Assembly: GCA_037200965.1 (NCBI GenBank)
Contig: JBBCGK010000001.1
Span: 384,001 to 448,000, forward strand
DNA: 64,000 nt
Source of the DNA: a bacterium
Lineage (GTDB): Bacteria; Patescibacteriota; Minisyncoccia; Phycocordibacterales; Phycocordibacteraceae
Direction of reading: 5' to 3'
Shown here: positions 15,547-54,580 of the stretch, one piece after another
Layout: each line of letters starts with the position of its first letter
Position numbering within the stretch: position 1 is the first letter of the stretch
Notes under the pieces: generated by a model
Databases searched by the model: none
What the model was told of the DNA's origin: nothing
Seen by the model: only the letters and a program-made list of their open reading frames with translations
Program-made: the position numbers and the translations under genes

Positions 15547-18500
15547 TTATCTGTTATTTTTAACCTTATTTTTTGTCTCGGTCGTTGTTGGCTTCGTTGT
15601 AGCTGGTGTTGTCGGAGCAGGCGCGGTTTGAATCATACTTCCAGGAATGATTGGGACATGGACTGTATAGGTTTGCGATACTGCTGCTCCAACGCCAATT
15701 TGCAGGTTATGACTGCTTGAAACATCTTGTTTTGGACCTGTAGCATTAGTTCCATCCTTTACGTTAACAGTTGCTGATTTCGAGTATTTATACCCCACCC
15801 CTACTGCGCCGCCCACACTTTGTTCAACCTGCACCTCAGCGTTTTTTGGCATAGAACCTGATGAGAACCCTCCACCTATCTTTGCTTCCGCTCCAAGCGA
15901 AGGTCCTCCGCCGGCAACTGCGTTAACTCCTTGGTCACTTGCTTCAAAACCTATCTGCACATTGAAGAATCCATATGTTAGACCTCCATTGATATAAACA
16001 TACCAATTACCAGACGGATCCTTATTAATTATTGGATTATTTCGGACATAACTATAGCTATTCAAAGTTTGAGGATCCATCAGAATCTGATTCAATTCTT
16101 GCTGTGTTAGTTCCTTTACCTTCTTTGCATCTCCCATAGCCAAGAAAGATGGGTCTTGTGATAGAAACTGTCCACGTCCCCCGTCGTAATAACGTGCATT
16201 TAGATACGACAAATCAGACTCGTCATCATGGAACTGCCCGATGAAAGTCCGCCCGAGATCGACGGCTCCCGCATCGACCCTCTCGCTCCCGTACGGATAG
16301 TAGTCGAGGGTCTTCGCAAGCTGGCCCGCATCGTCCGAGACGACGTTCGTCGAGCCCAGGTGGTCGGGATGCATATAGCTCGTGGTGGTGGCGGAGCCGT
16401 TTCCTTCGATCGCGGCGACAAGCCCGTCTCCCGCCCAGATATACGCCGTAGTGGTCGCGCCTTGTAGTTCGAAGTATTTATTCGGGTACAGAGTGGCGAT
16501 GCCGCCAGAAACCTTCGCGGCCCTGTTGCCGACATGGTCATAGGCATAGGTGGTGGTCGCGGACCCATCACTTGAAGCGGCGAGGCGGTTGCGGTAATCC
16601 CAGGCGAACGAATCGGGACCGTGGGCGACGACGTTCCCGTCGTTGTCGTAGGAGAGGGTCGTGGACGCGACGGAGGTCGGCGCATGGGGATTCGCGTAGC
16701 CGGTCCCGGCATAGGCATAGGAGCCCTGGCCGGACTTGCCCGTAAGGTTGCCGATGGCGCTGTAGCCGTAGGTCTCGCGATACGGCAGAGATGCGGCGGC
16801 GGTCGTCGAGGCGACCGTCAGGCGGTCGAGATCGTCATAGGCGAACACCGCGCTTTTCGCCGCCTGCGTGTCGGAATAGTCATCGATGCCGGTAACATTC
16901 CCCACGGCGTCATAGGTGAAATAGATGTCCTGGATCGTCGTACCCGACGGCGGCGTTCCGATCACGTAGCTTGCGGCGGCGCTCCAGTCGCTGTCCACGT
17001 CGTGGTCGTCCCATACCCGCATCCGCCAGTAGTACGGGATGCCAGCCGCAAGCGCGTCCCCCGCATAGGTAATGTCCTCCGTGCGCGTGCCGGGGGCGGT
17101 GGAGCTCGCAAACGGCGCCTTCGCGCTGTCCCAAACCGGAGCGCTCCAAGCGCCCGTCGAGGTCGCCACCTGTATCTGGAAATACCGCGCGGAATCGCCG
17201 GAGTCCGGATCGGCATACACCGCGGAGAACTCGGGGAAATAATCCGTGATCCCGGCCGGGTTCGTAAGCCCTTCGGTCAGGAGCGAGGCGGGCGCGCCCG
17301 GCGGAAAGGACACGGGAATCTCGAAGCTCGCCACGGAACTCCACTCGCTTTGCGTATCGGCATCCCAAAGCTTGATCCGCCAATAATACGGCGTGGACGA
17401 GGCGAGGGCCGGTCCCGCGTATGAGATGTCCGGTATGCGCATGCCGGACGGCGTCGAGCTTGCAAGGGCCGTCATGCCAGTGTCCCAATAGACGCTTGAG
17501 AACGCGCTTGAGGCGGCGAGCTGGATCCGGTATGCGAGGGCCAGATCGCCCGCGTCCGCGTCCGTAAAGAGGGCCGAAAACTCCGGCGTAAGGTCGGTGA
17601 CGTGCACGGGATCCGTCTGCCCTTCGGTAAGAAGGGCCGTCGGCCCGGCAGGAGCCGTGTCGTAGACAACGACGAGCTTCGGATCGTGGCCCGTACCCGT
17701 ATCGTCCGCCGAAGCGAAATTCGCGACGAGTTCGGTCGCGTCGGTGGGAGCGATATTGTTGAAGTCGTTATACGTCCGGACGGAAAGCTTCGTGACGCCG
17801 GTCCTCGAAATGGAAGCCAGCCCGTTCGCGTTAAGCGCGATCGGTTCGTACGTGTTGCCGGCATACGTTCCGTCGCTTACGCCATAGGACGTGCTGCCGA
17901 TCATGTCGAAGTCCTGGCTTACGAGGCTCGCAGCGGACGAAGGCGAAGAAGAAGCGACATAGAGCCGTTTCTCGGAGCCGCCCGCCGTGACGCCGGTCAT
18001 GTAAAGGCTGAGGGTCGCGTCGATGACCGGAACGCTGTCGGGAAGCGAGGACGTGTCGAAAAGAAGGAACCCGCGCCTGATGCCGTAGTCAAGCGCCCCG
18101 GAAGCGACCCCGAGCTCGTCGCTCACGATGATCTCAGCAGCGTCGGAATTGGCGTTGATACCGTTCGTCGCGTTATGAACCGAGTTCCAGTTCGAGCTGT
18201 GATCCTTATACACGTATCCGTCGACCGACGACGTCTCGGGGTCAGGGTCGGGATAGAACGTACCTGTGTCCGCGCGCGCTCTTTTGGGGAACAGGAAGCC
18301 GACGATCGCTTCAAGGATGCCGGGGCTCCCGCCCTGCGCCCGTTTCTGGGCTTCATAGGAGTCCGCGGTGGTGATGCCGTAATCGGCGACCCACCACCCG
18401 CCTTTTTCGTCTTCGTAATACTGGGGATCGCCGGAAACGATTTCGGCGACGAACGTGTTCGGCTTGTCGGTCGCGAAAACGCGCGCGTGCTTGGTTCGCT

Positions 18501-21500
18501 GGCTTTTAATCTCTCCTTTCACCGCCACGCCCGCTGCCTTTGCCCGCGCCCGGGTCTCCTCGCTTGCCGGAAGATCGTCCACGTTCTCGTCCGTCCGGTA
18601 GGCATAGCGGACGATGCCGTCCGAAATTTCCCTGGTGCCAAGATGCCGGTCAACCGGCGCGCGCAACCGGAGCTCCGGCGCGTCGAATGGAAGCGCCTTC
18701 AGGGAAGCGTACGAGTCCCCGTCCGGTGCCGCTCTCTCATCCGTCGTGGTCGAGGCCGTTTCGCCAACTGCCGCTTCCGGAACGAGCGATTCCCCGAGAG
18801 GCTGCGTAGTCGAGGCCGCACGGGACTCCGTTTCCGGAACCTCCTCCGTCGTAGCGGCTCCTTCTTCCGGCGAGATCGCATCATGCCCGTCGAGATCGGA
18901 AGGAACGATCGGCTCGACGGACGCTTCTTCGCCAGCCTCTTCCTGGCCCATACCCAAAAACGCGAGCAGATACGGACTGTTCGACGCAAGCGCGAGACGG
19001 CCGTTTCGTATGCCAAGCAATTTCCCGAAAGCGCCCGCCTGCTCCGAGTCTTCGCCATCTCCATCCGTGCGGAGAGAATCTCCCGCCTGGGGAAGGACCG
19101 TGCGGATGTTCGTGAGCCGATAGAGCTGGTCCGCCGCGTAGGTGTAGGAACTCTCGGTTCCGTTCCCCAGCGCCGCATACTTGACCTTCCCGGTCGGCGC
19201 ATAATCGAAGTCGCTCACGACATCGGCAAAAGTCCCCGCTTCTCCCTGCCGCTGTGCGATCCTCTCGAGCTGCCCGGCGCTGTTGTATGTGTACCGGGCC
19301 TGTATCCCGTTCGGATATCCGAGCGTCGCAAGGTTCCCGAGCCGGTCGTACCCGTACCGCGTTATCGCGGATACGCCGCCGATAGTGTCGGTTTCCGTCT
19401 CCATCCGCCCGAGCGGATCGTATGCGAAAGCCGCCGTCGTTTCGGTCGTCGATGCCGTGCAGAGAAGTCCCTTTCCTTCCGTACAGGCGTCATAGGTATA
19501 GGCGACCTCGATACTTGGGCTCCCGGCGAAATCTTCGGCGAGGGGCCGGTTGAGATCGTCATAGGTGAATACCGTCGTCTGCCCCTTCGGATCGGTCGAG
19601 GATGCCAGATTCCCGGAAGCATCGTAGTTGTATGACCAGATGCCGTAGGTCGCGTCCGCGCCCGCATGGAGGTCTGTCGCGCTCAGGCGGCGGCCGAGGC
19701 CGTCATAAGCAAAGTCGCGGATATTCCCCTGCGCGTCCGTTATCTTCGTCAGGTTCTTATTGCCGTCGTACTCATACGCGGTCGTCTGCGAGCTCCCGCC
19801 GACATGCTCGACAACTGACGCCAAATTCCCGTAAGCATCCTTGACGAGATCCTTCGCGCGCCCGAGCGCGTCGGTGACGGTCGTTTTCCAGTCGTCATAG
19901 GCGTATTCCGTCTCCCCGACGGCGTTCTCGACCGAACTCACGCGCTTCAGCGGATCGTACGCATAGCGCGTGCGAAGCGGGAGGGCGGGCGGCGAGCTGG
20001 TGCCGGTGAAACCGGTCCCGGAGGCGAAGTAGGGCTGGGATTCGCTTACGAGAAGCCCGCGTCCGTCGTACGCGAACGTGCGTACCGCGTACCGGTTCGA
20101 TCCTTCGGCTTCGGCAAGCTCTTCGACTTTCCTGCCGAAACCGTCGAAGTACGTATAGGAATCGGCCGAAACGGCGTCGTCGAGATAGTCGGTCCGCTTG
20201 GCGCGGCGCGGCATCCCGGTATCGGTATAGGCATACGCGCTTTTCATAACCAGCGCCGAAGGCTCCTCCGTGTCCGGCTGCCACTCTTCGAGCACCCGGT
20301 CGAGCGGATCATACACGGTATGGTACGTCCGGCCGTTCGGATTCGTCGTCTGCCGCGGCTTGCCCGAGGAATAGTCGTAGAGATACGCGGTGCTCTGCCC
20401 GAGCGCATTGGTAGTCGTCGCCGGATACAAGCCATAGGGATCGTACTCGTAGATCGTCTGCTTATCGCGCGGATCCTTTTCGGTGAGTACGAGCCCGCGG
20501 GCGTCGTAGGTTTTTTCGGTATCGATCGTCGTCGAAGCCGCGATCCATGACTCCTGCTTGGTCAGGTTCCCCCTGTTCAGTGAACCGAAAGAAAGCGCGT
20601 CATAGTAGTTTTTCGTCTCCCGCACCGTCGAGCTTGCCTGATCCGTACGCGTCTCTCGCGACAGAAGCGAGAAGGGCGCGGTGGAGCTTGCCGCGTAGGC
20701 ATACGCGGTCGTGAACTTGTCCGTGCCGGTATCGGCAAACGAGCCGTCCGCGCCCGCATTCACCCTTCCCCATTCGACCTTCTGCGTCAGGTTTCCGGCC
20801 CCGTCGTCATACGCGTACGTCTCGGCCTTGTCCGCATGGTCGGAATCCCCGTCGTAGTCGAGCACCGTCATTTGGGTCTTCCTGACGAAGTCCGCCTTCC
20901 CGCCCCGGTTATAAGTTTCCCATTTGTCCACTTCAAGCGAATACAGATGCCCCGCGTCGTCGTACGACTCGCTGCGGTACGCCTTCCCGATCTTCGACTG
21001 GTCGTCGAGATATTCCCCGGTCGAGGTCGCCGAGGCGTCGCCCTGATGGAAGAAGGTTTTCGTAACGTTCCCGGCGGCATCCGTCTTCGTGGTCGTCCCG
21101 AATCCGGCGATGCGCCGGTCGAAGGGGCTGCCAAAATAATACCTGCCGCCCGCATACGCGTAGGAATCGGTCGAAGTCGCCCCGATACCGGCATACCTGC
21201 TTATGCCCTCCGCAGTCTCGAGGTTCACCGGAAGCCCGGGATTGAGCATGGCACCGCCCGCGCCCCGATAGCTTGCGGAAGACTTGTACGACGCGGTAAT
21301 GGCCCCGCCCGCGGGCTCGACGACGCGCGTGAGCAGATCGGCCATGCCTCCGGTGCCGAGATAGACGAAGTTGTAGTTGTGATAATAGCTGCCGCCGATG
21401 GTACCCGAGGTGATGAAATCCACGGGGCCGTTCCCGTCCGCTTCCCCGATGCGCGTTCCGGCATCGAGACCGTTCGCAATGAACGGCGCGGGAAGCGTTC

Positions 21501-23451
21501 GGGCCGGATCGAGCGCCCATCCGGTACCCGTATTGAGGTAGACGGCGTTGCCCGACCATAAGGAATTCGCGCCGTTGAATTCGACCCATGAGTTATAGCC
21601 GATATCGACGAGGCCGTCGTTGTTGAAGTCGGCGAGACGGGTGCTCGTGCCGCCGCCGGGCGGGATTGGCACGGCCCACTCGGTGCTCGTGGCCCACCCC
21701 GACCCGGTGTTGAGATACACCATATCGGTCGGGCCGTACTGGGAATCGGAACCTCCGATAACGTCGTCGAGCCCGTCGTTGTTCACGTCGGCTATGCGCG
21801 CGCCGGTATCCGCCCGGAGCCGCGCGGAGAAAAGCACCGGTATCTGCCACGACGGCGCGTACGTCCAGCCGTGGCCGTTGTTGAGGTACACCTTCTTCGT
21901 ATACGTTACGCTCCCGCCGTTCGGATTGTTCACATACGAGCGGACGATATCGGCGGGGCCGTCGCCGTTCACGTCACTGAACCGGGTGCCGACGTCCTTA
22001 TTATTCTCCACAATCGTCTCCGGATTGGTCCATACGGTACTCGTCGCCCAGCCGCTGCCGGTATTGAGAAACACCGACGAATTACACACGAAATCCGGTA
22101 GCAGATCTCCGTTCACGTCCACTATGCGGGTCCCTTTGTCGCGTATCGATGAACTTCCGTATTCGGTGATGATGCAGGGAGCGTTCCAGAGCGTGTTTTC
22201 AGCCCATCCGGTACCGGTGCCAAGATAGGTATGCTTGGTTATCACGGGGCTGCTGTACTTGGATTCGACAAGGTCGGTGAGCGAATCGCCGTTCACATCG
22301 GCGAGCGTCACTCCGCGATCGCCCTGATCGTTCGTGAATTCGACCGGCACCGTCCAGCCGGGACTGGCCCACGCGGGACTCGATGTCGCATAGGAGAATG
22401 CGGCCGCGGGAAGCGAGATTACCGCCCCGCCGTCGTCCCGGCCCGATTCGGTAACGCCCGCGAGGAGGAGGCGCGAGCCGTTGTCGCCGTGCGTATAGGC
22501 GAAATCGTAGCTCCGAACCCACTCCCCGTTCACCTTCGTCCGTATCTGGTCGATCTTATACCGTGTCCGCACACCAAAGCCGCCGGGAGACGTCGTCGCG
22601 GTCGCGGTCGCCCGAAGGCTCTTCGCGAACTCGACCGAAAAGACTCCGGGCGCTCCGCCGCTCCCGGTATAGCGGATGGATTCGGGATAGATCTGCCCCG
22701 AATCTTTCGCGTAGCCGTACGTGACGGTATTTCCGTTCGCATCCATGGTTTCCTGGAGCATCCACTTGTACACTCTGCCCGAATCTCCCGGGTCATCCTG
22801 CCTGGCGGCGGTCGAGGTGCCGAACCTGTACACGACGCCGTTTTTATCCGTCACCATCCAGATGTTTCCGGCAAGCGCATAGCGCAGATAAGAACCGTCA
22901 TCGCTGCGGGCGAGAAAGACCGAGGAATCCGACGTGGTCGCAAGCTCTCCCGAAAGCGAGGAATAGAAATGCGGCGAGGTCGTGCTATAGAGATTTTGCA
23001 TCCCTTCGACGTTATACCGTTCTATGTACGGTATGGAGATATTCCAGCCGTATCCGAAAGCGCTCGCCTCGTCGCGGTCCTGACTCGAATAGGACAGGGA
23101 AAGATGCGGCTCCATACCGTTTCTTCCGGGCGGAACGGTGATCGCGTAGTCGTACGTAAAAGCACCTGTTGCGGCCGATTGATCGGCGCGGGTACGTTCC
23201 GGGCCGGAATCCCGCAGGTATGGCGGCAACTGATCATCGCCGTCCCCCAAACTGAGAGTCTGCGCTCCCCCGCCCTGAAGAAAGGCATCGCCCTCCGTAT
23301 CCGGCATAGCCGATGAAACATCCTCGGCCGGATCTTCCGACGCCGCCAAAACGGGAGCGCAGAAGAGCGGCGTGAAAGAAAGAATCAGCGATGCTGCCAC
23401 GAACTTGTTGAAGGATATTACCCAGGTCGCCCGTTTCGAGGGCTTTGCCAT
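15547..23451 (-). CDS. giant secreted RHS/YD-repeat polymorphic toxin: SpvB-like N-terminal domain, FG-GAP beta-propeller repeats, YD/RHS shell, RHS core, variable C-terminal toxin domain
   Basis: From N- to C-terminus the protein shows: a signal peptide (MAKPSKRATWVISFNKFVAASLILSFTPLFCAPVLAA); an SpvB/TcB motif (TGAFTYDYAITVPPGRNGMEPHLSLSYSS...GYGWNISIPY); at least 6 FG-GAP-like repeats (DVNGDxxxDxV); dozens of YD repeats (YEYDPYG, YAYDGRGLL, YNYDASGNL...); an RHS core end (ARYYDGGRGQFLSQDP...NSYSYVRNNPIINKDPSGNWY); and a ~150-aa Gly-rich tail. The start is chosen at ATG 23451, giving a good signal peptide; the ORF-track start at 23556 adds 35 aa. Confidence 0.85.
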   Translation of the reverse strand: MAKPSKRATWVISFNKFVAASLILSFTPLFCAPVLAASEDPAEDVSSAMPDTEGDAFLQGGGAQTLSLGDGDDQLPPYLRDSGPERTRADQSAATGAFTYDYAITVPPGRNGMEPHLSLSYSSQDRDEASAFGYGWNISIPYIERYNVEGMQNLYSTTSPHFYSSLSGELATTSDSSVFLARSDDGSYLRYALAGNIWMVTDKNGVVYRFGTSTAARQDDPGDSGRVYKWMLQETMDANGNTVTYGYAKDSGQIYPESIRYTGSGGAPGVFSVEFAKSLRATATATTSPGGFGVRTRYKIDQIRTKVNGEWVRSYDFAYTHGDNGSRLLLAGVTESGRDDGGAVISLPAAAFSYATSSPAWASPGWTVPVEFTNDQGDRGVTLADVNGDSLTDLVESKYSSPVITKHTYLGTGTGWAENTLWNAPCIITEYGSSSIRDKGTRIVDVNGDLLPDFVCNSSVFLNTGSGWATSTVWTNPETIVENNKDVGTRFSDVNGDGPADIVRSYVNNPNGGSVTYTKKVYLNNGHGWTYAPSWQIPVLFSARLRADTGARIADVNNDGLDDVIGGSDSQYGPTDMVYLNTGSGWATSTEWAVPIPPGGGTSTRLADFNNDGLVDIGYNSWVEFNGANSLWSGNAVYLNTGTGWALDPARTLPAPFIANGLDAGTRIGEADGNGPVDFITSGTIGGSYYHNYNFVYLGTGGMADLLTRVVEPAGGAITASYKSSASYRGAGGAMLNPGLPVNLETAEGISRYAGIGATSTDSYAYAGGRYYFGSPFDRRIAGFGTTTKTDAAGNVTKTFFHQGDASATSTGEYLDDQSKIGKAYRSESYDDAGHLYSLEVDKWETYNRGGKADFVRKTQMTVLDYDGDSDHADKAETYAYDDGAGNLTQKVEWGRVNAGADGSFADTGTDKFTTAYAYAASSTAPFSLLSRETRTDQASSTVRETKNYYDALSFGSLNRGNLTKQESWIAASTTIDTEKTYDARGLVLTEKDPRDKQTIYEYDPYGLYPATTTNALGQSTAYLYDYSSGKPRQTTNPNGRTYHTVYDPLDRVLEEWQPDTEEPSALVMKSAYAYTDTGMPRRAKRTDYLDDAVSADSYTYFDGFGRKVEELAEAEGSNRYAVRTFAYDGRGLLVSESQPYFASGTGFTGTSSPPALPLRTRYAYDPLKRVSSVENAVGETEYAYDDWKTTVTDALGRAKDLVKDAYGNLASVVEHVGGSSQTTAYEYDGNKNLTKITDAQGNIRDFAYDGLGRRLSATDLHAGADATYGIWSYNYDASGNLASSTDPKGQTTVFTYDDLNRPLAEDFAGSPSIEVAYTYDACTEGKGLLCTASTTETTAAFAYDPLGRMETETDTIGGVSAITRYGYDRLGNLATLGYPNGIQARYTYNSAGQLERIAQRQGEAGTFADVVSDFDYAPTGKVKYAALGNGTESSYTYAADQLYRLTNIRTVLPQAGDSLRTDGDGEDSEQAGAFGKLLGIRNGRLALASNSPYLLAFLGMGQEEAGEEASVEPIVPSDLDGHDAISPEEGAATTEEVPETESRAASTTQPLGESLVPEAAVGETASTTTDERAAPDGDSYASLKALPFDAPELRLRAPVDRHLGTREISDGIVRYAYRTDENVDDLPASEETRARAKAAGVAVKGEIKSQRTKHARVFATDKPNTFVAEIVSGDPQYYEDEKGGWWVADYGITTADSYEAQKRAQGGSPGILEAIVGFLFPKRARADTGTFYPDPDPETSSVDGYVYKDHSSNWNSVHNATNGINANSDAAEIIVSDELGVASGALDYGIRRGFLLFDTSSLPDSVPVIDATLSLYMTGVTAGGSEKRLYVASSSPSSAASLVSQDFDMIGSTSYGVSDGTYAGNTYEPIALNANGLASISRTGVTKLSVRTYNDFNNIAPTDATELVANFASADDTGTGHDPKLVVVYDTAPAGPTALLTEGQTDPVHVTDLTPEFSALFTDADAGDLALAYRIQLAASSAFSSVYWDTGMTALASSTPSGMRIPDISYAGPALASSTPYYWRIKLWDADTQSEWSSVASFEIPVSFPPGAPASLLTEGLTNPAGITDYFPEFSAVYADPDSGDSARYFQIQVATSTGAWSAPVWDSAKAPFASSTAPGTRTEDITYAGDALAAGIPYYWRMRVWDDHDVDSDWSAAASYVIGTPPSGTTIQDIYFTYDAVGNVTGIDDYSDTQAAKSAVFAYDDLDRLTVASTTAAASLPYRETYGYSAIGNLTGKSGQGSYAYAGTGYANPHAPTSVASTTLSYDNDGNVVAHGPDSFAWDYRNRLAASSDGSATTTYAYDHVGNRAAKVSGGIATLYPNKYFELQGATTTAYIWAGDGLVAAIEGNGSATTTSYMHPDHLGSTNVVSDDAGQLAKTLDYYPYGSERVDAGAVDLGRTFIGQFHDDESDLSYLNARYYDGGRGQFLSQDPSFLAMGDAKKVKELTQQELNQILMDPQTLNSYSYVRNNPIINKDPSGNWYVYINGGLTYGFFNVQIGFEASDQGVNAVAGGGPSLGAEAKIGGGFSSGSMPKNAEVQVEQSVGGAVGVGYKYSKSATVNVKDGTNATGPKQDVSSSHNLQIGVGAAVSQTYTVHVPIIPGSMIQTAPAPTTPATTKPTTTETKNKVKNNR

Positions 23452-23542
23452 TACGGGTATCGTAGCATCCATTATCGAGGGCTTGTGGATATCGGGAGAA
23501 TCGGAAACTTTCGTTTTTATTGACGATACGCAGCGCAACATA

Positions 23543-23557
23543 TATGATATTATCATA
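23543..23557. promoter_or_regulatory. 15-bp perfect palindrome TATGATA-T-TATCATA, putative operator of the RHH antitoxin operon
   Basis: Seen directly; lies 20-34 nt upstream of the antitoxin ATG and overlaps -10-like TACTAT/TATAAG hexamers. Confidence 0.45.
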
Positions 23558-26289: not shown

Positions 26290-27237
26290 TCGCACTGCAT
26301 ATCGAACACTCCCTAATACTAAGGAGGATATGCGCAAAGAACCCAGGGAAATCATCAGGAAATTGAAGAAGTCGGGAGGAAAGGTGCGCGAAACCGCACG
26401 GACACTCGGCATATCTCCGGGCACGGTGGTGTTCTGGAAGAAGCGAGCCCGGAGCATCCGGAGCCGGTTTGCGCTCTCGACGCGGCAGCTTGTCCGCAAG
26501 TCGACAAGACCGAAGCGTCTTCGCCGCAGGACGCTCTCGGGAGAGCGGGCTGAGGCGCTCTTGCGCCTGCGCGAAGAGAAAGGATACGGGGCGCGCAAGC
26601 TCAAAGTGCTGCTCGGCCTCTCCGAGCACCCGGCGACCATCCATCGCTTCCTCAAAGCGAAAGGTCATATACTGGAAGGCGCGTCATACCGACGGCCGAG
26701 ATATCAGGAGACCACGCATATGTATCTCAAGAACGTGACCGCGCCCGGGAAGCTTCAGATGGATGTGAAGTACGTGACGCCCGAGCTGTCGGGGCTCCCG
26801 CATACCCTGTATCTGTATGCCGTCATTGATATTTGGAGCCGATACAAAGCTGGCGTCATCTTCCCCGAGCTCGTGCAGGACTTCTCCATCGAGGCCCTGC
26901 GGACGGTTTCGCTGCCGTTCGTACCGGATTTCGTGCAGACCGACAACGGCCTTGAGTTCCAGAGCCGCTTCCGCGCCTTCGTGACTGGGGAACTCGGCTG
27001 GAAGCATCATTTCATCCACAAGGCGAACCCGAATGAGAACGCGGTCATCGAGCGGTCATTCCGCACCGACGAGGAGGAGTTCTTCTGGCGCTTCATGAAA
27101 AAGCCCGCTTCAATGGAGGACCTCAATGCCCAGTATCAGGCCTTTCTGCGCGAATACAACCACGAACGGCCGCACCTTGGCATCGAGCTCAAGACGCCGT
27201 ATGCTCGACTGCAAGAGTGTTCGATATGTTAGTGCGA
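26290..27237 (+). mobile_element. IS481-family-like insertion sequence (~948 bp) with 22/23-bp imperfect terminal inverted repeats and a probable 6-bp TTAAGG target-site duplication
   Basis: IRL is TCGCACTGCATATCGAACACTC (26290-26311) and IRR is GAGTGTTCGATATGTTAGTGCGA (27215-27237). Their reverse complements differ only by G vs AA. Flanking TTAAGG lies at 26284-26289 and 27240-27245. Confidence 0.7.
26330..27232 (+). CDS. DDE transposase (N-terminal HTH + rve integrase core), IS481-like
   Basis: 300 aa. The DDE triad context reads LYLYAVIDIWSR ... VQTDNGLEF ... AVIERSFRTDEEE. A canonical SD (AAGGAGG) lies 3-9 nt upstream of the ATG, unlike most host genes. Confidence 0.8.
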   Translation: MRKEPREIIRKLKKSGGKVRETARTLGISPGTVVFWKKRARSIRSRFALSTRQLVRKSTRPKRLRRRTLSGERAEALLRLREEKGYGARKLKVLLGLSEHPATIHRFLKAKGHILEGASYRRPRYQETTHMYLKNVTAPGKLQMDVKYVTPELSGLPHTLYLYAVIDIWSRYKAGVIFPELVQDFSIEALRTVSLPFVPDFVQTDNGLEFQSRFRAFVTGELGWKHHFIHKANPNENAVIERSFRTDEEEFFWRFMKKPASMEDLNAQYQAFLREYNHERPHLGIELKTPYARLQECSIC

Positions 27238-37553: not shown

Positions 37554-39518
37554 CTATGCCTCGCCCTTGAGTATTTTCTTCAGCGTCTCTTCAGGAACTT
37601 CGAAAGGCTGCACTCCTGGCGTTTTTTGCTGCGTTTGCGGTTCTTGCCGCGGTGCCGGAGCTTGGGGCACAACATCTGTCGCCGCGGAAGGCGCTACGGC
37701 TGGCTGCTTCGCGATAACGCTCGCGAGCGCGTCCTTGAGCGAACTTTGCTTCTCGGTCTCTTTCTGCTGTTTCTCCTTCCCGGCCGATGCGGTCATATTC
37801 TTGAGTATTGATTTAAGCTCCTCGGTGGTCTTTGCTTTCGGTACGGGCGGAACGCGTTCCCGGATCGGCGCGTTTATGGGCCGGTTTTGCTCTACGGAAG
37901 CGGGCTCGCCCATGGGAAGCTCTTCCCGGTGCGGGCGCGGCGGAAGCGCCTCTTCCTTTGGTCGTGGAGGGAGCGTACGCTCCGGAGAAAGGACAGGAGC
38001 GCGCATCAGGGTCCTTGCGGGAGAAGGCATGCGGGCCGGAACCGGGCGCTCGCTTGCCTCGCGCCGTGGCGCGGCAGGCACCGGGCGGGCCCCGGGCCCC
38101 GGCACTTCGCTTCCCTGGTTCGCAAGCGCCTTTTGCATGGCGACATTGCTTGGGGCTTTTCTCGGGGCCCCTGGCGGGCCGTACGAGGCCTTGCGCATGC
38201 GTGCGTCGACCGGCGCTTCGGAGGCGACGCTCGCCTCAAGCTCGGCGACTATGGCGCTTTCGATTCCTTCGCGCGGCGAGGTGAACTGCGCGCGGGAGGA
38301 GGCGATAACCTCGTTCCGGTACGAAACGGGCGGCGCTTCGATCGGCGGTATGGTTACGGCCGAAAACGGCGGCGAGCCGACGCCGTCGATCATGAGGGTC
38401 AGGTATATCTGCCGCTTGTCGAGACCGACGATGTCCTCCTTGAGGAAGGCGGGCGAAAAGACCGTTTCGAGTGTCTCGGCGTCGAAGGGACCGACGCGGA
38501 ACGCGACCGTCGTGCCCACGTTCCCGAATACGGCGTCCCGGACCTCTTCTTCCATCTGTTCGATGTACTGGTGCGCGATGACGAGGTTAAGTTTGTATTT
38601 TCGGGCTTCGGAAAGAATCTCGGCAAACGTCTCGTTCGCGAAGTTCTGGAATTCGTCGACATAGAAATAGAAGTGCGGGAGCCGGGCGAGGTCGGCGCCG
38701 TGGAGATTCGCGCGGCTCATGGCGCCGAGAAAGATGCGCGTCGTTAGCATGGAGCCCAGGAGCCGCATGTTGGTCTCGCCGACAAGCCCCTTCGAGAGGT
38801 TGATGATGAGTATCTTCCGGTTGTCCATCATCTCCCTGATGTCGAACGAGGACTTCGGCTGCCCGATAATGTTTCGAATGAGCGGGTTCCCGGTAAACTG
38901 GCCGATCTTGTTCTGGATCGCGGGCGTCGCCTCTTGCGTGTACTTGTCACCGTAGTTTGCGAATTCCTTGACCCAGAAATCCTTCACGACCGGATCTTTC
39001 ACGTTATCGACGACTTTGGTGCGATAAGCCCTGTCGGTGTACATGCGGTTCACCCCGAGAAGCGTCGCGTCCGGGTATTCAAGGAGCGCGAGGAGCGTGT
39101 TCGTGAGGATGTACTCCATGCGGGCGCTCCAGGCGTCCTCCCAAATCTTCTTGAAGGTCGCCATGAGACCCGAGACCACGAGGTGTCGCTTGTCGTACCC
39201 GACGTCTTCCATCACGTTGAAAGCGATCGGATTGTCCATGTCAAACGGCGCGAAGTAGACCACGTCCTTGATGCGCTCCTGCGGGACGTACTCCAGGAGC
39301 TTGTTGGCAGTCTCGCCGTGCGGGTCGATAAAGGTGAGACCTTCGCCGTTCCGAAGGTCCTGGATCGCCATGTTCTCAAGCAAGGTCGACTTGCCCATAC
39401 CCGTCTTCCCGATCACGTACATATGGCGGTCGCGGTCCTTCTGCTTGATGCCAAATGGCACTTTCTTCCCTCTCGAGTCGGTCGCCGCGAAATAGGTAAC
39501 GCGTTCCGGATTATCCAT
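37554..39518 (-). CDS. TraG/TraD/VirD4-family coupling-protein-like P-loop ATPase (soluble, no N-terminal TM helices) with a ~250-aa Pro/Ala-rich disordered C-terminal tail
   Basis: Walker A YVIGKTGMGKSTLL and Walker B FYFYVDEFQNFA (a DEF-type motif as in T4CPs). The C-terminus is PRPKEEALPPRPHREELP-rich. The start is chosen at ATG 39518, 6 nt after a perfect TATAAT; the track start at 39545 is a TTG. Confidence 0.5.
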   Translation of the reverse strand: MDNPERVTYFAATDSRGKKVPFGIKQKDRDRHMYVIGKTGMGKSTLLENMAIQDLRNGEGLTFIDPHGETANKLLEYVPQERIKDVVYFAPFDMDNPIAFNVMEDVGYDKRHLVVSGLMATFKKIWEDAWSARMEYILTNTLLALLEYPDATLLGVNRMYTDRAYRTKVVDNVKDPVVKDFWVKEFANYGDKYTQEATPAIQNKIGQFTGNPLIRNIIGQPKSSFDIREMMDNRKILIINLSKGLVGETNMRLLGSMLTTRIFLGAMSRANLHGADLARLPHFYFYVDEFQNFANETFAEILSEARKYKLNLVIAHQYIEQMEEEVRDAVFGNVGTTVAFRVGPFDAETLETVFSPAFLKEDIVGLDKRQIYLTLMIDGVGSPPFSAVTIPPIEAPPVSYRNEVIASSRAQFTSPREGIESAIVAELEASVASEAPVDARMRKASYGPPGAPRKAPSNVAMQKALANQGSEVPGPGARPVPAAPRREASERPVPARMPSPARTLMRAPVLSPERTLPPRPKEEALPPRPHREELPMGEPASVEQNRPINAPIRERVPPVPKAKTTEELKSILKNMTASAGKEKQQKETEKQSSLKDALASVIAKQPAVAPSAATDVVPQAPAPRQEPQTQQKTPGVQPFEVPEETLKKILKGEA

Positions 39519-39588
39519 GCGCCTATTATACACTTTCCAACGCAACGGCCGCGCCTAAAGACGCGGTCGTTGCTTATTTTCGTTTTTT

Positions 39589-40616: not shown

Positions 40617-41458
40617 GTATTAAGAACAAGTTGGCACAAGCGTGAGTGATTTCGTTAAGTAAATACGGGGCGAATTGAAGATTTCCGGCGAGGAAAATCT
40701 GAAGCAGAATTCCCTCACGTATTCCTCCAAGTTCTCGCTCCAGTGATGATGATACATCCTGCGCACGAAGGTGCGGTATACCCCGAACATTCCCTCGATC
40801 TCAGAGGTGTGCTCGAACTCGAATTTGGAGTGAATATCTCGCTGGTGCGACACCGGCCAGCGTTGGCTGATGTTCTTGTATATCGACCCGCCATCGGTCC
40901 AGAGCTCGCTTCCCGGCGCCACATGCTCGAACAGGAATGAGACGGCATCAGTCTTGGTTGGGTACCTGCCGTGGAATACCTCGAAGGCGAGCTTTCTCGT
41001 ACCTTTCTGCTTGGCCATGACGAGCGCGGCGTTTTTGAAGTACGCTTCGTCCATTTGGACGATACGTTCGAGCACATGGGTTTCCTGGGGCAAATGGAGC
41101 CTGAAGGTGGCATACCAACGCCTGACCGTGCGTTCCGGAAGGCCAGAGAGCGTGACGGCTTGGCGTACCGGCTCTTGTATGGTCCAGCACCAGAGCAGCA
41201 CCCACCACTGCTCGAGGGGGAGCTTCAGATTCGAGAGCCAGGTGTGCGAGGTGAGGGAGAAGCGGATGCGGCACGTGCGGCACCGATACCGCTCCTGTTG
41301 CTTTTCGATCCTTCGTGACCGGCACGAAGGACAGAACACGTTCTTGCCGAAGAGCGTACGGCGCAAGAACTTCCGAATCTGCGCTTCGCTCGGTATCTGT
41401 TTGAGAGTGTACATAGCTTCCATGGTATGGGAGCTGTGCCAACTGAGTCTGAATGCCC
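40617..41458 (-). mobile_element. IS1595-family-like insertion sequence (~840 bp) bounded by 10-bp direct repeats, with short AGTTGGCACA-core terminal inverted repeats
   Basis: Direct repeats as listed. Left end is AGTTGGCACA at 40629-40638; right end is the reverse complement of TGTGCCAACT at 41436-41445. Confidence 0.5.
40620..41423 (-). CDS. IS1595-family DDE transposase (N-terminal zinc-ribbon CPSC...CRTC)
   Basis: FCPSCRSRRIEKQQERYRCRTCRIRF, then IVQMDEAYF ... LWTDGGSIY. The start is chosen at ATG 41423 (MEAMYTLKQ); the track start at 41477 would cross the direct repeat. Confidence 0.7.
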   Translation of the reverse strand: MEAMYTLKQIPSEAQIRKFLRRTLFGKNVFCPSCRSRRIEKQQERYRCRTCRIRFSLTSHTWLSNLKLPLEQWWVLLWCWTIQEPVRQAVTLSGLPERTVRRWYATFRLHLPQETHVLERIVQMDEAYFKNAALVMAKQKGTRKLAFEVFHGRYPTKTDAVSFLFEHVAPGSELWTDGGSIYKNISQRWPVSHQRDIHSKFEFEHTSEIEGMFGVYRTFVRRMYHHHWSENLEEYVREFCFRFSSPEIFNSPRIYLTKSLTLVPTCS

Positions 41459-41468
41459 TGATCCGGGG
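41459..41468. repeat. 10-bp direct repeat TGATCCGGGG (right flank of the IS1595-like element)
   Basis: See 40607-40616. Confidence 0.5.
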
Positions 41469-41470
41469 AC

Positions 41471-41500
41471 TTGACAATACAATATACTAAGGTGTATAAT
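41471..41500 (+). promoter_or_regulatory. perfect-consensus sigma70-type promoter TTGACA-N18-TATAAT
   Basis: Both hexamers are perfect. The promoter sits 3 bp outside the IS1595 direct repeat and about 45 nt upstream of the small ORF 41548-41658. Confidence 0.55.
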
Positions 41501-41547: not shown

Positions 41548-41658
41548 ATGGATATGACCACCTTACCCTTCGTTGTCGCTTTGGCGACGTTCGGGCTGTA
41601 TTTCGCGGGCCTGTTTTTCGAGGCACGCGCGACAGCGATCCCGTACTTCCGCCCGTAG
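41548..41658 (+). CDS. 36-aa hydrophobic single-TM peptide (MDMTTLPFVVALATFGLYFAGLFFEARATAIPYFRP)
   Basis: A strong SD (AAGAGGAGAG, AGGAG 6 nt before the ATG), a perfect upstream promoter and a downstream hairpin terminator. Too short for the ORF track. Confidence 0.45.
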   Translation: MDMTTLPFVVALATFGLYFAGLFFEARATAIPYFRP

Positions 41659-48182: not shown

Positions 48183-48237
48183 AGGTCTAGTATACCTTCT
48201 GTGCGGGCCCCGGGGGCGTTCTCCACAGGGAATTTTG

Positions 48238-48310
48238 TGCACGCTCTAGGATTCGAACCTAGGACCGCTCGAGTATCAGTCGAGTGCTCTACCAACTGAG
48301 CTAAGCGTGC
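48238..48310 (-). tRNA. tRNA-Ile (anticodon GAT)
   Basis: The reverse complement folds as a cloverleaf: acceptor GCACGCT/AGCGTGC, D-arm GCTCAGTTGGTAGAGC, anticodon stem CTCGA/TCGAG with loop CTGATAC, and T-arm CTAGGTTCGAATCCTAG. Discriminator A; CCA not encoded. Confidence 0.85.
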
Positions 48311-48565
48311 AGTTTCGTGATAGTACCAAAATCCGCCTGTTATTTCCACTTTCCCCACCCCCTCCCTTTCCCCCGAACCTTGCCTGTTATAGTGAGCCTA
48401 TAGATGGTCCACCGTGGCAACACGCGCGAACCGAAATTCCTCCGGTCGAGGAGGACTTCTACTCCCGAGTCGAAACTGCGCCGGCATCGCAACAAGGAGC
48501 GCATCTGGCAAAGATGCGTAAAGCGCCTCAAGGTCGCGGAAGTGCCTGCGGCTGCATAGGCCAAA

Positions 48566-48599
48566 AAGAAAGACCCGGATCACCCGGGTTCTTTCTTTA
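48566..48599. other. strong 14-15-bp hairpin (AAAGAAAGACCCGG-atcac-CCGGGTTCTTTCTTT) in the 16S-tRNA-Ile spacer
   Basis: Seen directly. Could be an rRNA processing stem or an attenuator. Confidence 0.4.
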
Positions 48600-48933
48600 T
48601 TCAGTGCATCGAAAACCTGTAGTCGCGTTCTCTTTTGTTCCGCCTATCCTGCTCCCGCTCAAAGGCTCACGTGTGGCCTTCAAGCGACCGCCGGGTTACG
48701 TTATCCGGCTTCCGTAGCGCGTTTGGGGACGACGCTAATCTCCCACTGTCCTTGCAGACAATATCGACATGATATGCCTTTCGGGCGATATCGGTTCCAA
48801 TTGGATATGTTCCACGAGCAGCTTCCGCTACCCGTGCCTTGTTTCGACTTACTCCCTGTCATTGAGTTTGCCGTAGTCCTGCATACGCAGAATTTCGGGC
48901 ACCCCCAACTCCCTTGAGTTGACGGGCGAATGT

Positions 48934-49824
48934 GATACTTAGGCAAGTTCACGTTCCCACGCAGCGAGCGGATTTCCCGCACTGCGCGAGCCCCCGGCGT
49001 GCATTTTCGATTTCAACACAGCGATCTTCCTAACCCCTTCTTTCGTGTGATGGGCTTTCGCAATCGCGAGCTCGAGGACTTGGTAAAATAGCTCAAAGTC
49101 CTTTACGCGCTTGCTTTCAAGCGGGTGCCTTTTGAAAAAAGGCACCACGACTTGCTTCAAGAGATCGTAGCTGAAGATCTCGAACCGATAATTATCCCGT
49201 TGATTCTTCCGATATTCGCGTTGGAAGTATATCTTTCCGCATCCCCAGAATTTCTGTACTTTCTCAAGAAGAGGAAGTTCGTCTTCCCGCATCTTGATGT
49301 AGTAACGGCACTGCACCCGGTAACTTACCGAGCCATGCTCTTTCTTAGGTGGAAGCAGATAGACACAGAAACTCCCTTCGCCATCGGTCAAACCGACGAT
49401 GTAATCAGCGGATAGCACGCCTGGTTTTGTCCTTCTCGCGTTCTTCTTGTGGAAGAGCGCAATACTACGACGCAGCTGACTCCCAGTGTCTTTTGATTCC
49501 TGCATACCGACATAGTATCAATGAGTTGACACTACGGGTATTCAAGAACCGTTGCCGTTGTGGACAACTGGGTCTCCCCGGGTTACGCATACTTCTATTC
49601 CATACATCCTCTACGGGCCTTTCTTCGGCACCTTCCCTATCCTCACCGCCCACTGATAGGTCGATGCGGCCCTTTTTGTGTACAGGCTGTGTTTTGCTTC
49701 CAGATCCTTCAGTCCATACCTTACGGCATTGGACCTATCTTTCGGCTACGCTCCCCACGACGAGTGAGGAGGAGTGGATTTGAACCACTTAGAACTATGC
49801 GCTGCCGGGCGCATTTATTTGTGA
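48934..49824 (-). mobile_element. intervening sequence (group-I-intron-like, ~890 bp) inserted near E. coli 16S position ~1396 (CTTGTAC|ACATTCGCCCGTCA)
   Basis: Conserved 16S sequence stops after TTGTAC at 49825 and resumes at 48933. The insert encodes a LAGLIDADG ORF. Confidence 0.7.
48939..49505 (-). CDS. LAGLIDADG homing endonuclease (single-motif type)
   Basis: 188 aa with the motif YIVGLTDGEGSF; the ORF ends at the insert boundary. Confidence 0.8.
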   Translation of the reverse strand: MQESKDTGSQLRRSIALFHKKNARRTKPGVLSADYIVGLTDGEGSFCVYLLPPKKEHGSVSYRVQCRYYIKMREDELPLLEKVQKFWGCGKIYFQREYRKNQRDNYRFEIFSYDLLKQVVVPFFKRHPLESKRVKDFELFYQVLELAIAKAHHTKEGVRKIAVLKSKMHAGGSRSAGNPLAAWERELA

Positions 49825-50395
49825 GTACAAGACTCGAGAACGTATTCACCGTAGTATGGCTGACCTACGATTACTAGTGATTCCGGCTTCATGAGGTCGG
49901 TTGCAGACCTCAATCCGTACTGGGGGCGGTTTTCGGGATTAGCTCCACCTTGCGGTCTTGCATCCTTCTGTACCGCCCATTGTAACACGTGTGCAGCCCA
50001 GGGTATCAAGGGACATGCTGATCTGGCGTCATCCCCACCTTCCTCTCCCGTGAGGGAGCAGTCTCGCCTGACATATATAACAGGCAACGGGGGTTGCGTT
50101 CGTTACCCCACTGAAGGGAACAGTTCAAACCACGAACTGACGACGACCATGCATCACCTGTCCAGCACCCTCGAAGGCTCCGTCCCTTTCGGGTCGGATG
50201 CAGCTGGATTTCTAACCCTGGTAAGGTTCTTCGCTTGCCGACGAATTAAGCCACATGTTCCACCACTTGTGCGAGTCCCCGTCTATTCCTTTGAGTTTTA
50301 AGCTTGCGCTCGTACTACCCAGGCGGCTCGCTTATCGCGTTAGCTTAGCCCCACAGAGGGTCGATACTCCGTAGAGCGAGCGAGCAACGTTTAGG

Positions 50396-50427
<32 letters not shown>

Positions 50428-50689
50428 ATCCCCTGGCTTTCGTGTGTGAGCGTCAGGAACGTACCAGTCTATTGCCTTCGCCTTTGGTGTTCCCCATGAT
50501 ATCAACGGATTTCACCCCTACACCATGAGTTCCATAGACCTCTTACGCCCTCGAGCCGTACCGTTTCCCGTGCGGACCGGAAGTTGAGCTCCCGGATTTT
50601 ACGCGAGACTAATACGGCCGCCTTGACACCCTTTACGCCCAGTGATTCCGGATAATGCTCGGGGCCTCTGTATTACCGCTCCTGCTGGC

Positions 50690-51624
50690 CATCGTGTGTG
50701 GCATGCCGCACGGGCATGCCGCTCATATCGCTATGAGGATCGGACTATATCATCACCCACCAATACTGATGGGGCTCGGCGTGTAGTCTCTGAGGGGTCA
50801 AAGTATATATTCCGATGATCAGAAGGAAGCTTGTACCTGAAACAGGGCAGGATGTAAGGGGCGACGGTTCTTGTAAACGCGTCGCGTCCTTCTTTCCCGA
50901 TATACAGTTTCGGATACCGCTTCCCGCGGCACAGCGACAAATAGGTTTTTGCCGCGATGCCGAATCTCTCTAATAACAGCGCTTGCAGTCGCTTCACCTC
51001 CGATTCCGTGAAAGAATCAGTACTGATGTGGTACGCATAATGGGATTTTGCTCGATAATCGAGCCTCCCATCATCCATGAACCACACCGCGAGCGTGAGC
51101 GGCGACCGGAACAATTCGGTGATATTTCCAGGAACGACCTTCTCGCGTCCCGCGTAGAAGATTTTGCGCATGTCTTCGAGGTTCTCGAAGAAACGCGTTC
51201 CGAAATACCACTGTTTCGTATCCGGTCTTTGCTTCGGAGGAGTTTTGACGAGATGCGCGAAGTGACTATAAAGCCACACTACATACTCCTTTCGTTCCTC
51301 CGATTGCTTTACCTGCAATCGGGTGCCTCGATAGCCGTTAAACTCGAGATTTCCATCTCCGAGCATGAGGCCTACGAGCACATCCCGTTGTTGCTTCGAG
51401 AGCGCACAGATCATCTTCACAATTATACTCGACTTCCCTGCTGATTGTCTCTTGGGATCTGATTTTGATTTCAAAGAAATCTAAACCAGACGCAGTCCAC
51501 AAGAGAGTTCCAGCATATAGCCAAGTTTTCGATCTCGATTTCTCGAGAAAGCTGCACGCGGTAACGAACGGTTCGTGAGAACCGTTCGATTTGCTCCAAT
51601 GCGCAGAGCCACCTGCGCACGTGT
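50690..51624 (-). mobile_element. intervening sequence (~935 bp) inserted in the 16S 515-region (AACTCTGT|GCCAGCAGGAGCGGTAATAC)
   Basis: The exon sequence ends at 51625 and resumes at 50689. The flanking universal-primer site reads GCCAGCAGGAGCGGTAATAC rather than GCCAGCAGCCGCGGTAATAC. Confidence 0.7.
50731..51474 (-). CDS. LAGLIDADG homing endonuclease (double-motif type)
   Basis: 247 aa with VGLMLGDGNL and VWFMDDGRL motifs. Confidence 0.8.
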   Translation of the reverse strand: MKSKSDPKRQSAGKSSIIVKMICALSKQQRDVLVGLMLGDGNLEFNGYRGTRLQVKQSEERKEYVVWLYSHFAHLVKTPPKQRPDTKQWYFGTRFFENLEDMRKIFYAGREKVVPGNITELFRSPLTLAVWFMDDGRLDYRAKSHYAYHISTDSFTESEVKRLQALLLERFGIAAKTYLSLCRGKRYPKLYIGKEGRDAFTRTVAPYILPCFRYKLPSDHRNIYFDPSETTRRAPSVLVGDDIVRSS

Positions 51625-52214
51625 ACAGAGTTAGGAGCCCCTTATTCCCCGGGTACCGTCAATTACTTCGTCCCCGGGAAAAGCTGTTTACGTACCTAAG
51701 CACTTCGTCCAGCACGCGGCGTCGCTCCGTCAGGCTTGCGCCCATTGCGGAATATTCTCGTCTGCGGCCTCCCGTAGGAGTATGGGCCGTATCTCAGTCC
51801 CATCGGTGGGGGTCAGCCTCTCAGCTCCCCTAAACGTCGTAGCCTTGGTGAGCCATTACCTCACCAACTAGCTGATATTACGCAGGTGACTCCCGGAGCA
51901 ATAAATCTTTACTCTCGCGAGACCATCGGGAATTACCCAACCTTTCGGCTGGCTATGCCCGACTCCGGGGGATCTCCCTGCGCGTTACTACCTCGTTCGC
52001 CACTGCCCTTGCGGGCCGTTCGACTTGCATGACTTATCCACGCCGCCAGCATTCATCCTGAGCTAGGATCAAACTCTCATTAAGAATAGGCGGAACAAAA
52101 CAAAACATAACTTACAGGTTTTCTTGCACCCCCAAGACCGTGCCGGTCCTGGGGACTTTATTCGTATGTCAGAGAGCAAATAAAACCGGCCCCCTGTGGG
52201 GCAGGTAAAGCCAT

Positions 52215-52241
52215 ACTATAGGAGGGCGGGAGGGGCGTCAA
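52215..52241 (-). promoter_or_regulatory. putative rRNA promoter TTGACG-N15-TATAGT (minus strand), ~135 nt upstream of the 16S 5' end
   Basis: Hexamers read from the reverse complement of 52215-52241; the spacer is one nt short of optimal. Confidence 0.4.
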
Positions 52242-53683: not shown

Positions 53684-54580
53684 TTAGTGATATAGGAATG
53701 AGGAATCCGACATCACGACCTGTCCGAGCGACAGGTCTTTGACCCATCCCGGCATTTCAGTCCGATGCTCATGCACGAGCGCGGCGAGGCGCAACTGCAT
53801 GCTCGCCTCGGAACCTGTGATTTTCTTCTCTTCGATCTCACGCAGCACTCGGGCGATCTTGTCGGCAAGATACGGCGCAAGCGCTCCGGTAAACACGTTG
53901 AGCTGCATACCGGACCTGTCTCTGGTCTCTTGCGGGCCCAATGCCTGATAGTGCGTCGCAAGAAGTCCCTGGAGCGATGCGTTCGGCTTGAGCCTGAAGT
54001 CGACTGAAACGAGAGCATGGATGGTATAGCCCCCGTACCAGGCAACTGTGACCGGTACAATAGCGGAACGGCGCCAGACCGGCACCGGGACGCTACGTAC
54101 TTCCAGGCGTTCGGCCTGCACGATCTGCCCCGGCAAGAGCATCCGGCCATCGTCGGTTATCCGCACATACCCAGGAGCGGTACCGAGCAGATGTCCGCCT
54201 TGGTTTATGTAGAGCGCCGCCGCAGTCGGCATGAGGGCGAGCAGCGTGAAGACGCTCAGCGTGATCGGGATAGCTTCGTCGGTCGCTTCGTAGAACCAGT
54301 ACAGCGGACCGAAGTATTTGCGCGTCTTTCCTGTCCAATCATCTGTCCACACGAGAATAAGCGCGTAGGCACTGAGACAGATAACGCCGCCCGCCGACAC
54401 CCAGATCGGCGTCCATTCCCAGAACGCGGCATTGTCTTCCATGGCGCTCACCCCATAGGCGTCCAATAGATACAGGGACGAAAAAAGAAAAGCGGCGACA
54501 CTCACGGCGAAACCGGCAGCAATAAAGGCGGTCCGGCCCAGCCAGTGTGGGAGCTCGAAGCTCCGCGTTGTTGCAGTCAT
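53684..54580 (-). CDS. hypothetical membrane protein (4 TM N-terminal domain + soluble C-terminal domain)
   Basis: 298 aa; no motif recognised. Confidence 0.35.
   Translation of the reverse strand: MTATTRSFELPHWLGRTAFIAAGFAVSVAAFLFSSLYLLDAYGVSAMEDNAAFWEWTPIWVSAGGVICLSAYALILVWTDDWTGKTRKYFGPLYWFYEATDEAIPITLSVFTLLALMPTAAALYINQGGHLLGTAPGYVRITDDGRMLLPGQIVQAERLEVRSVPVPVWRRSAIVPVTVAWYGGYTIHALVSVDFRLKPNASLQGLLATHYQALGPQETRDRSGMQLNVFTGALAPYLADKIARVLREIEEKKITGSEASMQLRLAALVHEHRTEMPGWVKDLSLGQVVMSDSSFLYH

Follow-up and report, generated by a model that had tools for sequence, protein, structure and literature searches.

Introduction

[quoted passage not shown] Lineages without this tail reveal what the bacterial ribosome manages without SD pairing. 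A 64-kb stretch of a bacterial genome of ~0.96 Mb (hereafter the window, i.e., the whole stretch that was analyzed) contains a 16S rRNA gene that was predicted to end without CCUCC, amid genes nearly devoid of SD motifs. Has the tail indeed been lost, and, if so, how might ribosomes reach the start codons in such an organism?

Loss of the anti-SD in a subgroup of Parcubacteria has already been published (Tsurumaki et al., 2022; RNA 28:1041; PMC9297842): only 48% of Parcubacteria had a detectable motif, there is overlap between the lineages devoid of it and the group lacking uL1, and SD helices are probably not formed there. The window comes from a further genome showing this trait. Given that the loss itself is known, the gain of the present analysis lies in its confirmation, in a catalogue of replacement tails and in a testable model of initiation.

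Results

The 16S rRNA Gene Is Interrupted Twice and Ends Without the Anti-SD Core

The 16S rRNA gene lies on the minus strand, and all three of its exons score above the RF00177 gathering score of 50, with Rfam matches at 52084..51562 (386 bits), at 50828..49773 (775.5 bits) and, for the 3' exon in a focused scan, at 49000..48800 (69.6 bits, E=7.9e-20). Exon limits (Table 1) were taken from blastn comparisons with two intron-less relatives, L138 and L127, at ~90% identity. Insertion 1 contains a weak group I intron match (50893..50721, 26.5 bits) that stays under the Rfam gathering score, and insertion 2 gave no significant Rfam intron match; the endonuclease ORF of the latter has a putative -10 box of its own, 6 nt ahead of its ATG.

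The gene appears as a stand-alone unit (48563..52241, minus strand), to which a promoter-like site, a leader/trailer stem and a terminator-like hairpin belong. The leader motif GTTCCGCCTAT recurs in L127, L138 and L147, the relatives that include the 16S 5' end, and an exact leader/trailer stem of 20 nt is present in L138 and L147. No 23S rRNA gene was found in the 64-kb window, nor within 9-11 kb downstream in the relatives (including L082, L083 and L115). In L082, L083, L100 and L138, the neighboring tRNA-Ile(GAU) is encoded on the strand opposite to the 16S gene, and in some other relatives it shares the strand of that gene.

Table 1. Features of the 16S rRNA locus, with positions counted along the window.
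Feature	Position	Strand	Basis
16S rRNA gene, two insertions, three exons totalling ~1458 nt	48800..52084	-	Rfam + blastn
16S exon 1, E. coli ~1-516	51625..52084	-	Rfam + blastn
Insertion 1, 935 nt, ~E. coli 516/517	50690..51624	-	blastn limits
LAGLIDADG_2 endonuclease ORF in insertion 1	51474..50731	-	PF03161, E=1.5e-32
16S exon 2, E. coli ~517-1399	49821..50689	-	Rfam + blastn
Insertion 2, 892 nt, ~E. coli 1399/1400	48929..49820	-	blastn limits
LAGLIDADG_1 ORF in insertion 2	49505..48939	-	PF00961, E=2.1e-16
16S exon 3: helix 44 3' strand, helix 45, 3' tail	48800..48928	-	Rfam + blastn
Helix 45, 10 bp, GGAA loop	48813..48836	-	Rfam alignment
3' tail GAACAUAUCCAAU	48800..48812	-	Rfam alignment
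Anti-SD-equivalent positions, UAUCC for CCUCC	48803..48807	-	Rfam alignment
Promoter-like site of the 16S unit, TTGACG-17-TAGTAT	52213..52241	-	consensus scan only
Processing-stem leader strand UUUUGUUCCGCCUAUUC, abutting the 16S 5' end	52084..52100	-	complementary to 48649..48633
Conserved structured 3' trailer	48650..48799	-	alignment A1 + RNAalifold
Processing-stem trailer strand GGAUAGGCGGAACAAAA	48633..48649	-	complementary to 52100..52084
Terminator-like hairpin + T-run, just past the processing stem	48563..48589	-	consensus scan
tRNA-Ile(GAU), downstream of the 16S unit	48237..48310	-	ARAGORN; Rfam 74.9 bits

On the minus strand, the segment in question (48798..48830) reads AGCGGAAGCTGCTCGTGGAACATATCCAATTGG (also given as AGCGGAAGCUGCUCGUGGAACAUAUCCAAUUGG). 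In the Rfam alignment, helix 45 is intact (CACGGGUAGC-GGAA-GCUGCUCGUG, model positions 1491-1520), with 10 of 10 pairs kept in the 12 aligned sequences (the window and 11 relatives), and model positions 1521-1533 (GAUcACCUCCUUu) are aligned on GAACAUAUCCAAU with top posterior probability throughout. This tail replaces the bacterial GAUCACCUCCUUU, which it matches at 7 of 13 positions; in E. coli numbering the changes are U1532A, C1535U, C1536A, U1540A and U1541A, so that the core CCUCC (positions 1535-1539) has become UAUCC and only U1537-C1538-C1539 remain of it. Since an intact helix 45 is followed by UAUCC where CCUCC would be expected, the original prediction was right about the tail; its quotation of the flanking sequence (GAAGUCG...) was slightly wrong, and the window reads GUAAGUCGAAACAAGG. 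The 16S tail of this Parcubacterium has lost the anti-SD core. The mature 3' end would lie at ~48800.

One further position of the decoding-center strand deserves mention. The equivalent of E. coli U1498 (window position 48844, minus strand) is an A (GUCGAAACAAGG, not GUCGUAACAAGG), while U is present in all 12 relatives of the family; the A could be either a real variant or an assembly error. Genome contigs were also searched with the pattern AAGTCGAAACAAGG-N10-GGAA-N10-GAWC, in which the U1498A change was to serve as a marker of relatives. This approach was abandoned, as it returned 46 unrelated loci with the same A (from Saccharibacteria, WWE3, Bdellovibrionales MAGs and others), all with canonical tails, which were used as controls only.

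Relatives Share the Tail, and Other Families Carry Other Tails

To place the tail among its relatives, metagenomes were scanned for a helix 45 of the Parcubacteria type that precedes GGAWCA and any base other than C at position 1535. At least 120 matches were obtained; because the pattern preselects GGAWCA and a non-C at 1535, they yield no frequencies and no conservation estimate for those positions. Among the matches listed, the 11-nt sequence GGAACAUAUCC is invariant in at least 12 independent contigs from different samples, in which AA(N)UGGAAYCG, a covarying hairpin (loop CGAAAGG) and GUCGAU come next. The comparison with relatives thus bears out the loss of CCUCC: relatives that reach the 16S 5' end have no 16S insertion (L138, L127) or one (L147), as against two in the window, and the tail is identical in all of them. 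The non-canonical tail is not an artefact.

Many degenerate tail families were found among the matches listed, including CAUUUUUUUAAAA, CAAUUAAACUA, CAAUUCCAAUUUGG and CAUAUCCAAUUGG, as well as the mild variant CAUCUCCUUU. Such diverse, lineage-specific replacement tails would fit decay once selection was lifted. In the family of the window, GGAACAUAUCC is invariant while the spacer is only ~72% identical, which suggests that some constraint on the tail remains and that pure drift does not explain it. Parcubacteria-type tails at loci L050-L169 also include poly-U/poly-A sequences, AAUUAAACUA and AAUUCCAAUUUGG, and a conserved GUCGA(Y) occurs ~10-40 nt past nearly all degenerate tails of these loci, among the matches listed.

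The helix 45 signature AAGGCAnnnGUAGCGGAAGCUG of the window is shared by a Magasanikbacteria genome (L036) and at least 120 metagenome contigs, and the SecD homologues with 68-70% identity are named Kaiserbacteria, Paceibacterota, Minisyncoccia or Parcubacteria. Placed by these two markers, the source organism appears to be a Kaiserbacteria-like member of Parcubacteria (Patescibacteria/CPR).

The Trailer Has the Architecture of an Ordinary Pre-rRNA Spacer

The ~150 nt past the tail are conserved and, together with the 16S rRNA, enclosed by the leader/trailer stem. RNAalifold predicted 54 pairs in this trailer, 27 of which show compensatory changes (alignment A1). Its modules comprise a 3-4 bp UCC(A)/(U)GGA remnant hairpin, the CGAAAGG-loop hairpin, GUCGAU, a pseudoknot-like module and two more hairpins. 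Judged by eye, the module GAGAGAuAGUACucgUCUCUaaacgGUACU has the look of an H-type pseudoknot, the second stem of which covaries (AGUAC/GUACU, AGCG/CGCU, AGUGG/CCACU, AGCAC/GUGCU, AGCAG/CUGCU). The trailer also holds GUCUCUAAAC and the leader UUGCUCUCUGACAUA (52179..52165), both of which we take to resemble rrn boxA antitermination sites.

We considered the trailer as a new 16S 3' extension or an unknown sRNA and downgraded this idea: the trailer had no Rfam match, and similar spacers are found beside canonical tails. Stem-enclosed spacers of 154-290 nt were measured in the three CPR loci with canonical tails, and other loci with canonical tails or mild variants have spacers as short as 72 nt. 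Hence, the trailer most readily represents ordinary pre-rRNA architecture. In the canonical sets, 72-88% of loci have a precursor hairpin formed by the anti-SD with an AAGGAG of the spacer; this hairpin is kept in the mild variant (CAUCUCC), and in the family of the window the UCC(A)/(U)GGA remnant is what is left of it. The idea of a tail-trailer hairpin covarying across all tail families was rejected, as it fails for the poly-U and AAUUAA families.

A CCUCC separated from the tail by yet another intervening sequence would have overturned the loss. In most relatives, the 900 nt downstream of the tail contain no CCTCC, and no CCUCC is conserved there; the single CCTCC of the window (~48455) is found only past the processing stem and the terminator-like hairpin, a position that rules it out as a hidden exon. 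Since the intron-less L138 and L127 possess the same tail and no conserved CCTCC follows it, this objection fails.

SD Motifs Are Not Enriched Upstream of Genes

The gene set of the window (~50 genes) was obtained with a self-trained codon model, and starts were assigned by that model or by the longest ORF, so some of them are wrong. SD motifs were counted for 49 window genes, from 64 kb of the ~0.96-Mb genome, and for 55 genes flanking the 16S gene in relatives. GGAGG or AGGAG precedes only 1 of the 49 window genes, in agreement with the near-absence of SD motifs noticed originally, and the total of 307 GGAGG/AGGAG in the window compares with 327+-20 expected from composition. The shorter GGAG/GAGG was found upstream of 9% of window genes and 5% of genes in relatives (n=55), against 7-8% in interior controls; for the relatives, the interior value was 6.6%. 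In non-CPR controls with canonical tails, the same pipeline gave 27% vs. 6.4% (p=4e-9), which demonstrates that it is able to detect SD usage.

Calculated pairing gave the same picture. The values for the canonical anti-SD were -3.74 kcal/mol upstream of window genes, -4.13 in gene interiors and -3.88 in shuffles; for the organism's own tail, the corresponding values were -2.92, -3.07 and -3.26 kcal/mol. No G-rich positions were present at -12..-6 of the window genes, and SD enrichment was absent from every gene subset tested (49 window genes and 55 genes of relatives). An SD frequency typical of bacteria was seen neither in the 49 genes nor in the 55 genes of the 12 relatives. Minimum dG over the first three candidate starts had also been tried; it proved too noisy, with canonical-tail CPR seemingly depleted, and was replaced by the motif and spacing tests.

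A few genes do possess good SD sites. The original prediction had named two: the rve-family (IS481-like) transposase (26330..27232, plus strand), with SD and start in TAAGGAGGATATG, and a 36-aa ORF at 41548 (plus strand) with GAGGAG, which adjoins an IS1595-family transposase (40620..41477). A hypothetical 298-aa gene (53684..54580, minus strand) also has an SD and start; it and the rve-family transposase are the only called genes for which the pair is convincing. A second 36-aa ORF with a good SD and start is located at 15155 (minus strand). Such genes may mark DNA recently acquired from SD-using bacteria.

Many Start Codons Closely Follow a -10-Like Box

A different signal was found ahead of many genes. 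TANNNT ends 5-9 nt before the start of 16 of the 49 window genes, as compared to 7 of 223 interior ATGs, and in relatives the frequencies are 35% vs. 2.1%, with a sharp spacing mode at 6 nt. Among 34 genes with such a putative -10 box, recognized by its match to the consensus, TATACT is the commonest hexamer, 31 start with ATG and 19 have a G two bases upstream of the hexamer. Approximately two thirds of the genes have no recognizable start signal. Ten window genes share 4 nt (ATGA) with the gene before them, and several others are separated from it by 1-3 nt, an arrangement that would suit termination-reinitiation. Start regions are moreover slightly AT-richer (47% vs. 41.5%) and less structured (-6.6 vs. 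-9.2 kcal/mol). C is over-represented before starts (49%, 41% and 39% at -3, -2 and -1), and T is nearly missing at -3 (4%).

The box is not restricted to genomes with a degenerate tail. In canonical-tail CPR loci (L004-L047; n=50 genes, a small sample including Saccharibacteria, WWE3, Patescibacteria and Magasanikbacteria loci), the -10 box was found at 44% vs. 8.6% and the SD at 8% vs. 8.1%. A -10 box ~6 nt ahead of the start was enriched in every CPR set examined (L004-L047 and L050-L169).

Discussion

Our results argue that this bacterium has a functional 16S rRNA without an anti-SD, and we consider it likely that SD pairing is not used, that first genes are translated mostly from leaderless mRNAs and genes within operons by reinitiation, and that selection on the tail has been relaxed. 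Ribosomes would then be placed without SD:anti-SD pairing. A -10 box ending ~6-8 nt before the AUG would imply a transcript that starts at or next to the start codon; hence, the mRNAs of the first genes of transcription units are probably leaderless for the most part. Genes further downstream in operons would probably be reached by termination-reinitiation at overlapping stop and start codons (ATGA), and the other genes might rely on weakly structured, slightly AT-rich start regions. If SD:anti-SD pairing does not place the ribosome, selection on CCUCC would be relaxed, which we regard as the probable cause of its loss. A second likely cause may be the loss, in most CPR, of Era, the assembly GTPase that reads GAUCACCUCC. 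Era binds GAUCA and CCUCC, and most CPR are without it (reviewed in PMC10582724), so its loss would have removed a second constraint on the tail. The tail might subsequently have drifted into the lineage-specific sequences seen today.

Three other explanations of the unusual tail have to be weighed. The assignment of the tail could be mistaken, such that yet another intervening sequence, or a mature 3' end that extends further (for instance, the ~150-nt structured trailer retained as a 3' extension), supplies a CCUCC-like or other mRNA-binding element. In favor of this, the gene already contains two insertions, and the trailer is conserved, with 27 covarying pairs, and enclosed together with the 16S rRNA; but the intron-less relatives end in the same tail, no downstream CCTCC is conserved and the only one in the window lies past the processing stem and the terminator, comparable enclosed spacers exist beside canonical tails, in CPR as well as in other bacteria, and nothing in Rfam matches the trailer. 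We therefore hold a misassigned tail to be improbable. Still less probable, in our opinion, is that the gene is a decaying or non-functional paralogue of a working 16S gene elsewhere. Its two insertions are at functionally critical sites, the A at position 1498 of the decoding center is shared by 0 of 12 relatives, and a second 16S gene with a canonical tail could lie outside the 64 kb examined in a genome of ~0.96 Mb. On the other hand, Rfam scores are strong, helices 44 and 45 are intact, and the tail, processing stem, trailer structure, promoter and terminator have been kept among 12 relatives from different samples. CPR genomes also usually carry a single rRNA set. Homing-endonuclease insertions, for their part, are known in CPR rRNA genes (PMC9297842).

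The tail could, finally, be a re-tuned anti-SD: mRNAs would have co-evolved an SD such as GGAUA(U) that pairs with UAUCC (or AUAUCCAAU). The invariance of GGAACAUAUCC in at least 12 relatives, next to a downstream sequence that varies, does indicate a constrained tail. Yet complementarity to the organism's own tail is no higher upstream of genes than in gene interiors or shuffles, and the matching motifs are not enriched (GGAT, GGATA and GATAT each upstream of 2 of 49 genes, TGGAT of 0 of 49); nor did any variant anti-SD match a variant SD among 128 organisms (Amin et al., PMC6107228). This explanation is largely refuted, and we give it hardly any credence.

A broader picture is conceivable. 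Since canonical-tail CPR show the same start signature, the data hint that reliance on leaderless mRNAs may predate the loss of the anti-SD, and the distribution of the -10 boxes suggests that leaderless initiation could be CPR-wide. We may speculate, as a possible but rather doubtful extension, that leaderless initiation is both ancestral and dominant across all CPR/Patescibacteria, that the anti-SD is a relic there, free to decay into many lineage-specific tails after the loss of Era, and that these tails are fixed within each family by another role. Pre-rRNA 3' processing or factor binding may be candidates for such a role. In the literature searched, we found neither a link of leaderless initiation to CPR, Parcubacteria or Saccharibacteria, nor a picture of CPR-wide leaderless initiation with a relic anti-SD.

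Among known systems, the window is most similar to the anti-SD-lacking Parcubacteria (PMC9297842), with which it shares the CPR/Parcubacteria affiliation, the absence of CCUCCU at the 16S 3' end, rRNA insertions and a short 16S rRNA. That study reported detection rates and the link to uL1, and described neither the replacement tails nor the mode of initiation; the window adds a defined tail family (GAACAUAUCC) and the leaderless signature. The rplK-rplA region, where uL1 would be encoded, lies outside the 64-kb window. Beyond the single genome, the present analysis contributes a view of how diverse degenerate tail families are, and finds the leaderless signature also in canonical-tail CPR. Outside Parcubacteria, anti-SD-lacking bacteria have been described in Flavobacteriia (Chryseobacterium, Elizabethkingia, Riemerella, Blattabacterium), Mycoplasma and Ca. 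Carsonella (Lim et al., 2012; PMC6107228), and 128 other organisms without CCUCCU are generally without SD motifs and have no compensating variant SD (Amin et al., 2018; PMC6107228). The window resembles Flavobacteriia, Mycoplasma and Carsonella in its variant or absent CCUCCU, its lack of SD enrichment and its lack of a compensating SD, and, as in the non-SD organisms of Amin et al. (2018), no SD-like motif was enriched upstream of genes (49 + 55 genes). These lineages are, however, unrelated to it, and Bacteroidetes (GeneMarkS-2 group B) use A-rich non-SD leaders, with no -10 box abutting the start.

GeneMarkS-2 group C (Actinobacteria and Deinococcus-Thermus; PMC6028130) is rich in leaderless genes, and its Pribnow box 6-8 nt upstream of the start of many first genes and its strong ATG preference are very similar to our observations. 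Unlike the window, group C organisms keep the canonical anti-SD and SD sites on leadered and operon-internal genes; the window has the fixed-distance -10 box, and SD-type ribosome-binding sites are not enriched among its remaining genes. Mammalian mitochondrial 12S rRNA likewise has no anti-SD and serves leaderless or near-leaderless mRNAs. It differs from the window in being organellar, with very few mRNAs and a heavily remodelled ribosome. Its assembly factor contacts helix 45, not CCUCC (see also PMC10582724).

The loss of the tail has practical consequences. Gene finders that score ribosome-binding sites will mis-call starts in such genomes, and universal 16S reverse primers or annotation rules that depend on the GGATCACCTCCTT tail will either fail or mis-trim. 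For CPR genetics, expression tools should be of leaderless design.

Elsewhere in the window, a giant ORF (15547..23556, minus strand; 2669 aa) with a strong coding signal lies in a neighborhood that otherwise consists of glycosyltransferase, Mur-ligase and SecDF genes, and a TraG/VirD4-like coupling ATPase is encoded at 37554..39545.
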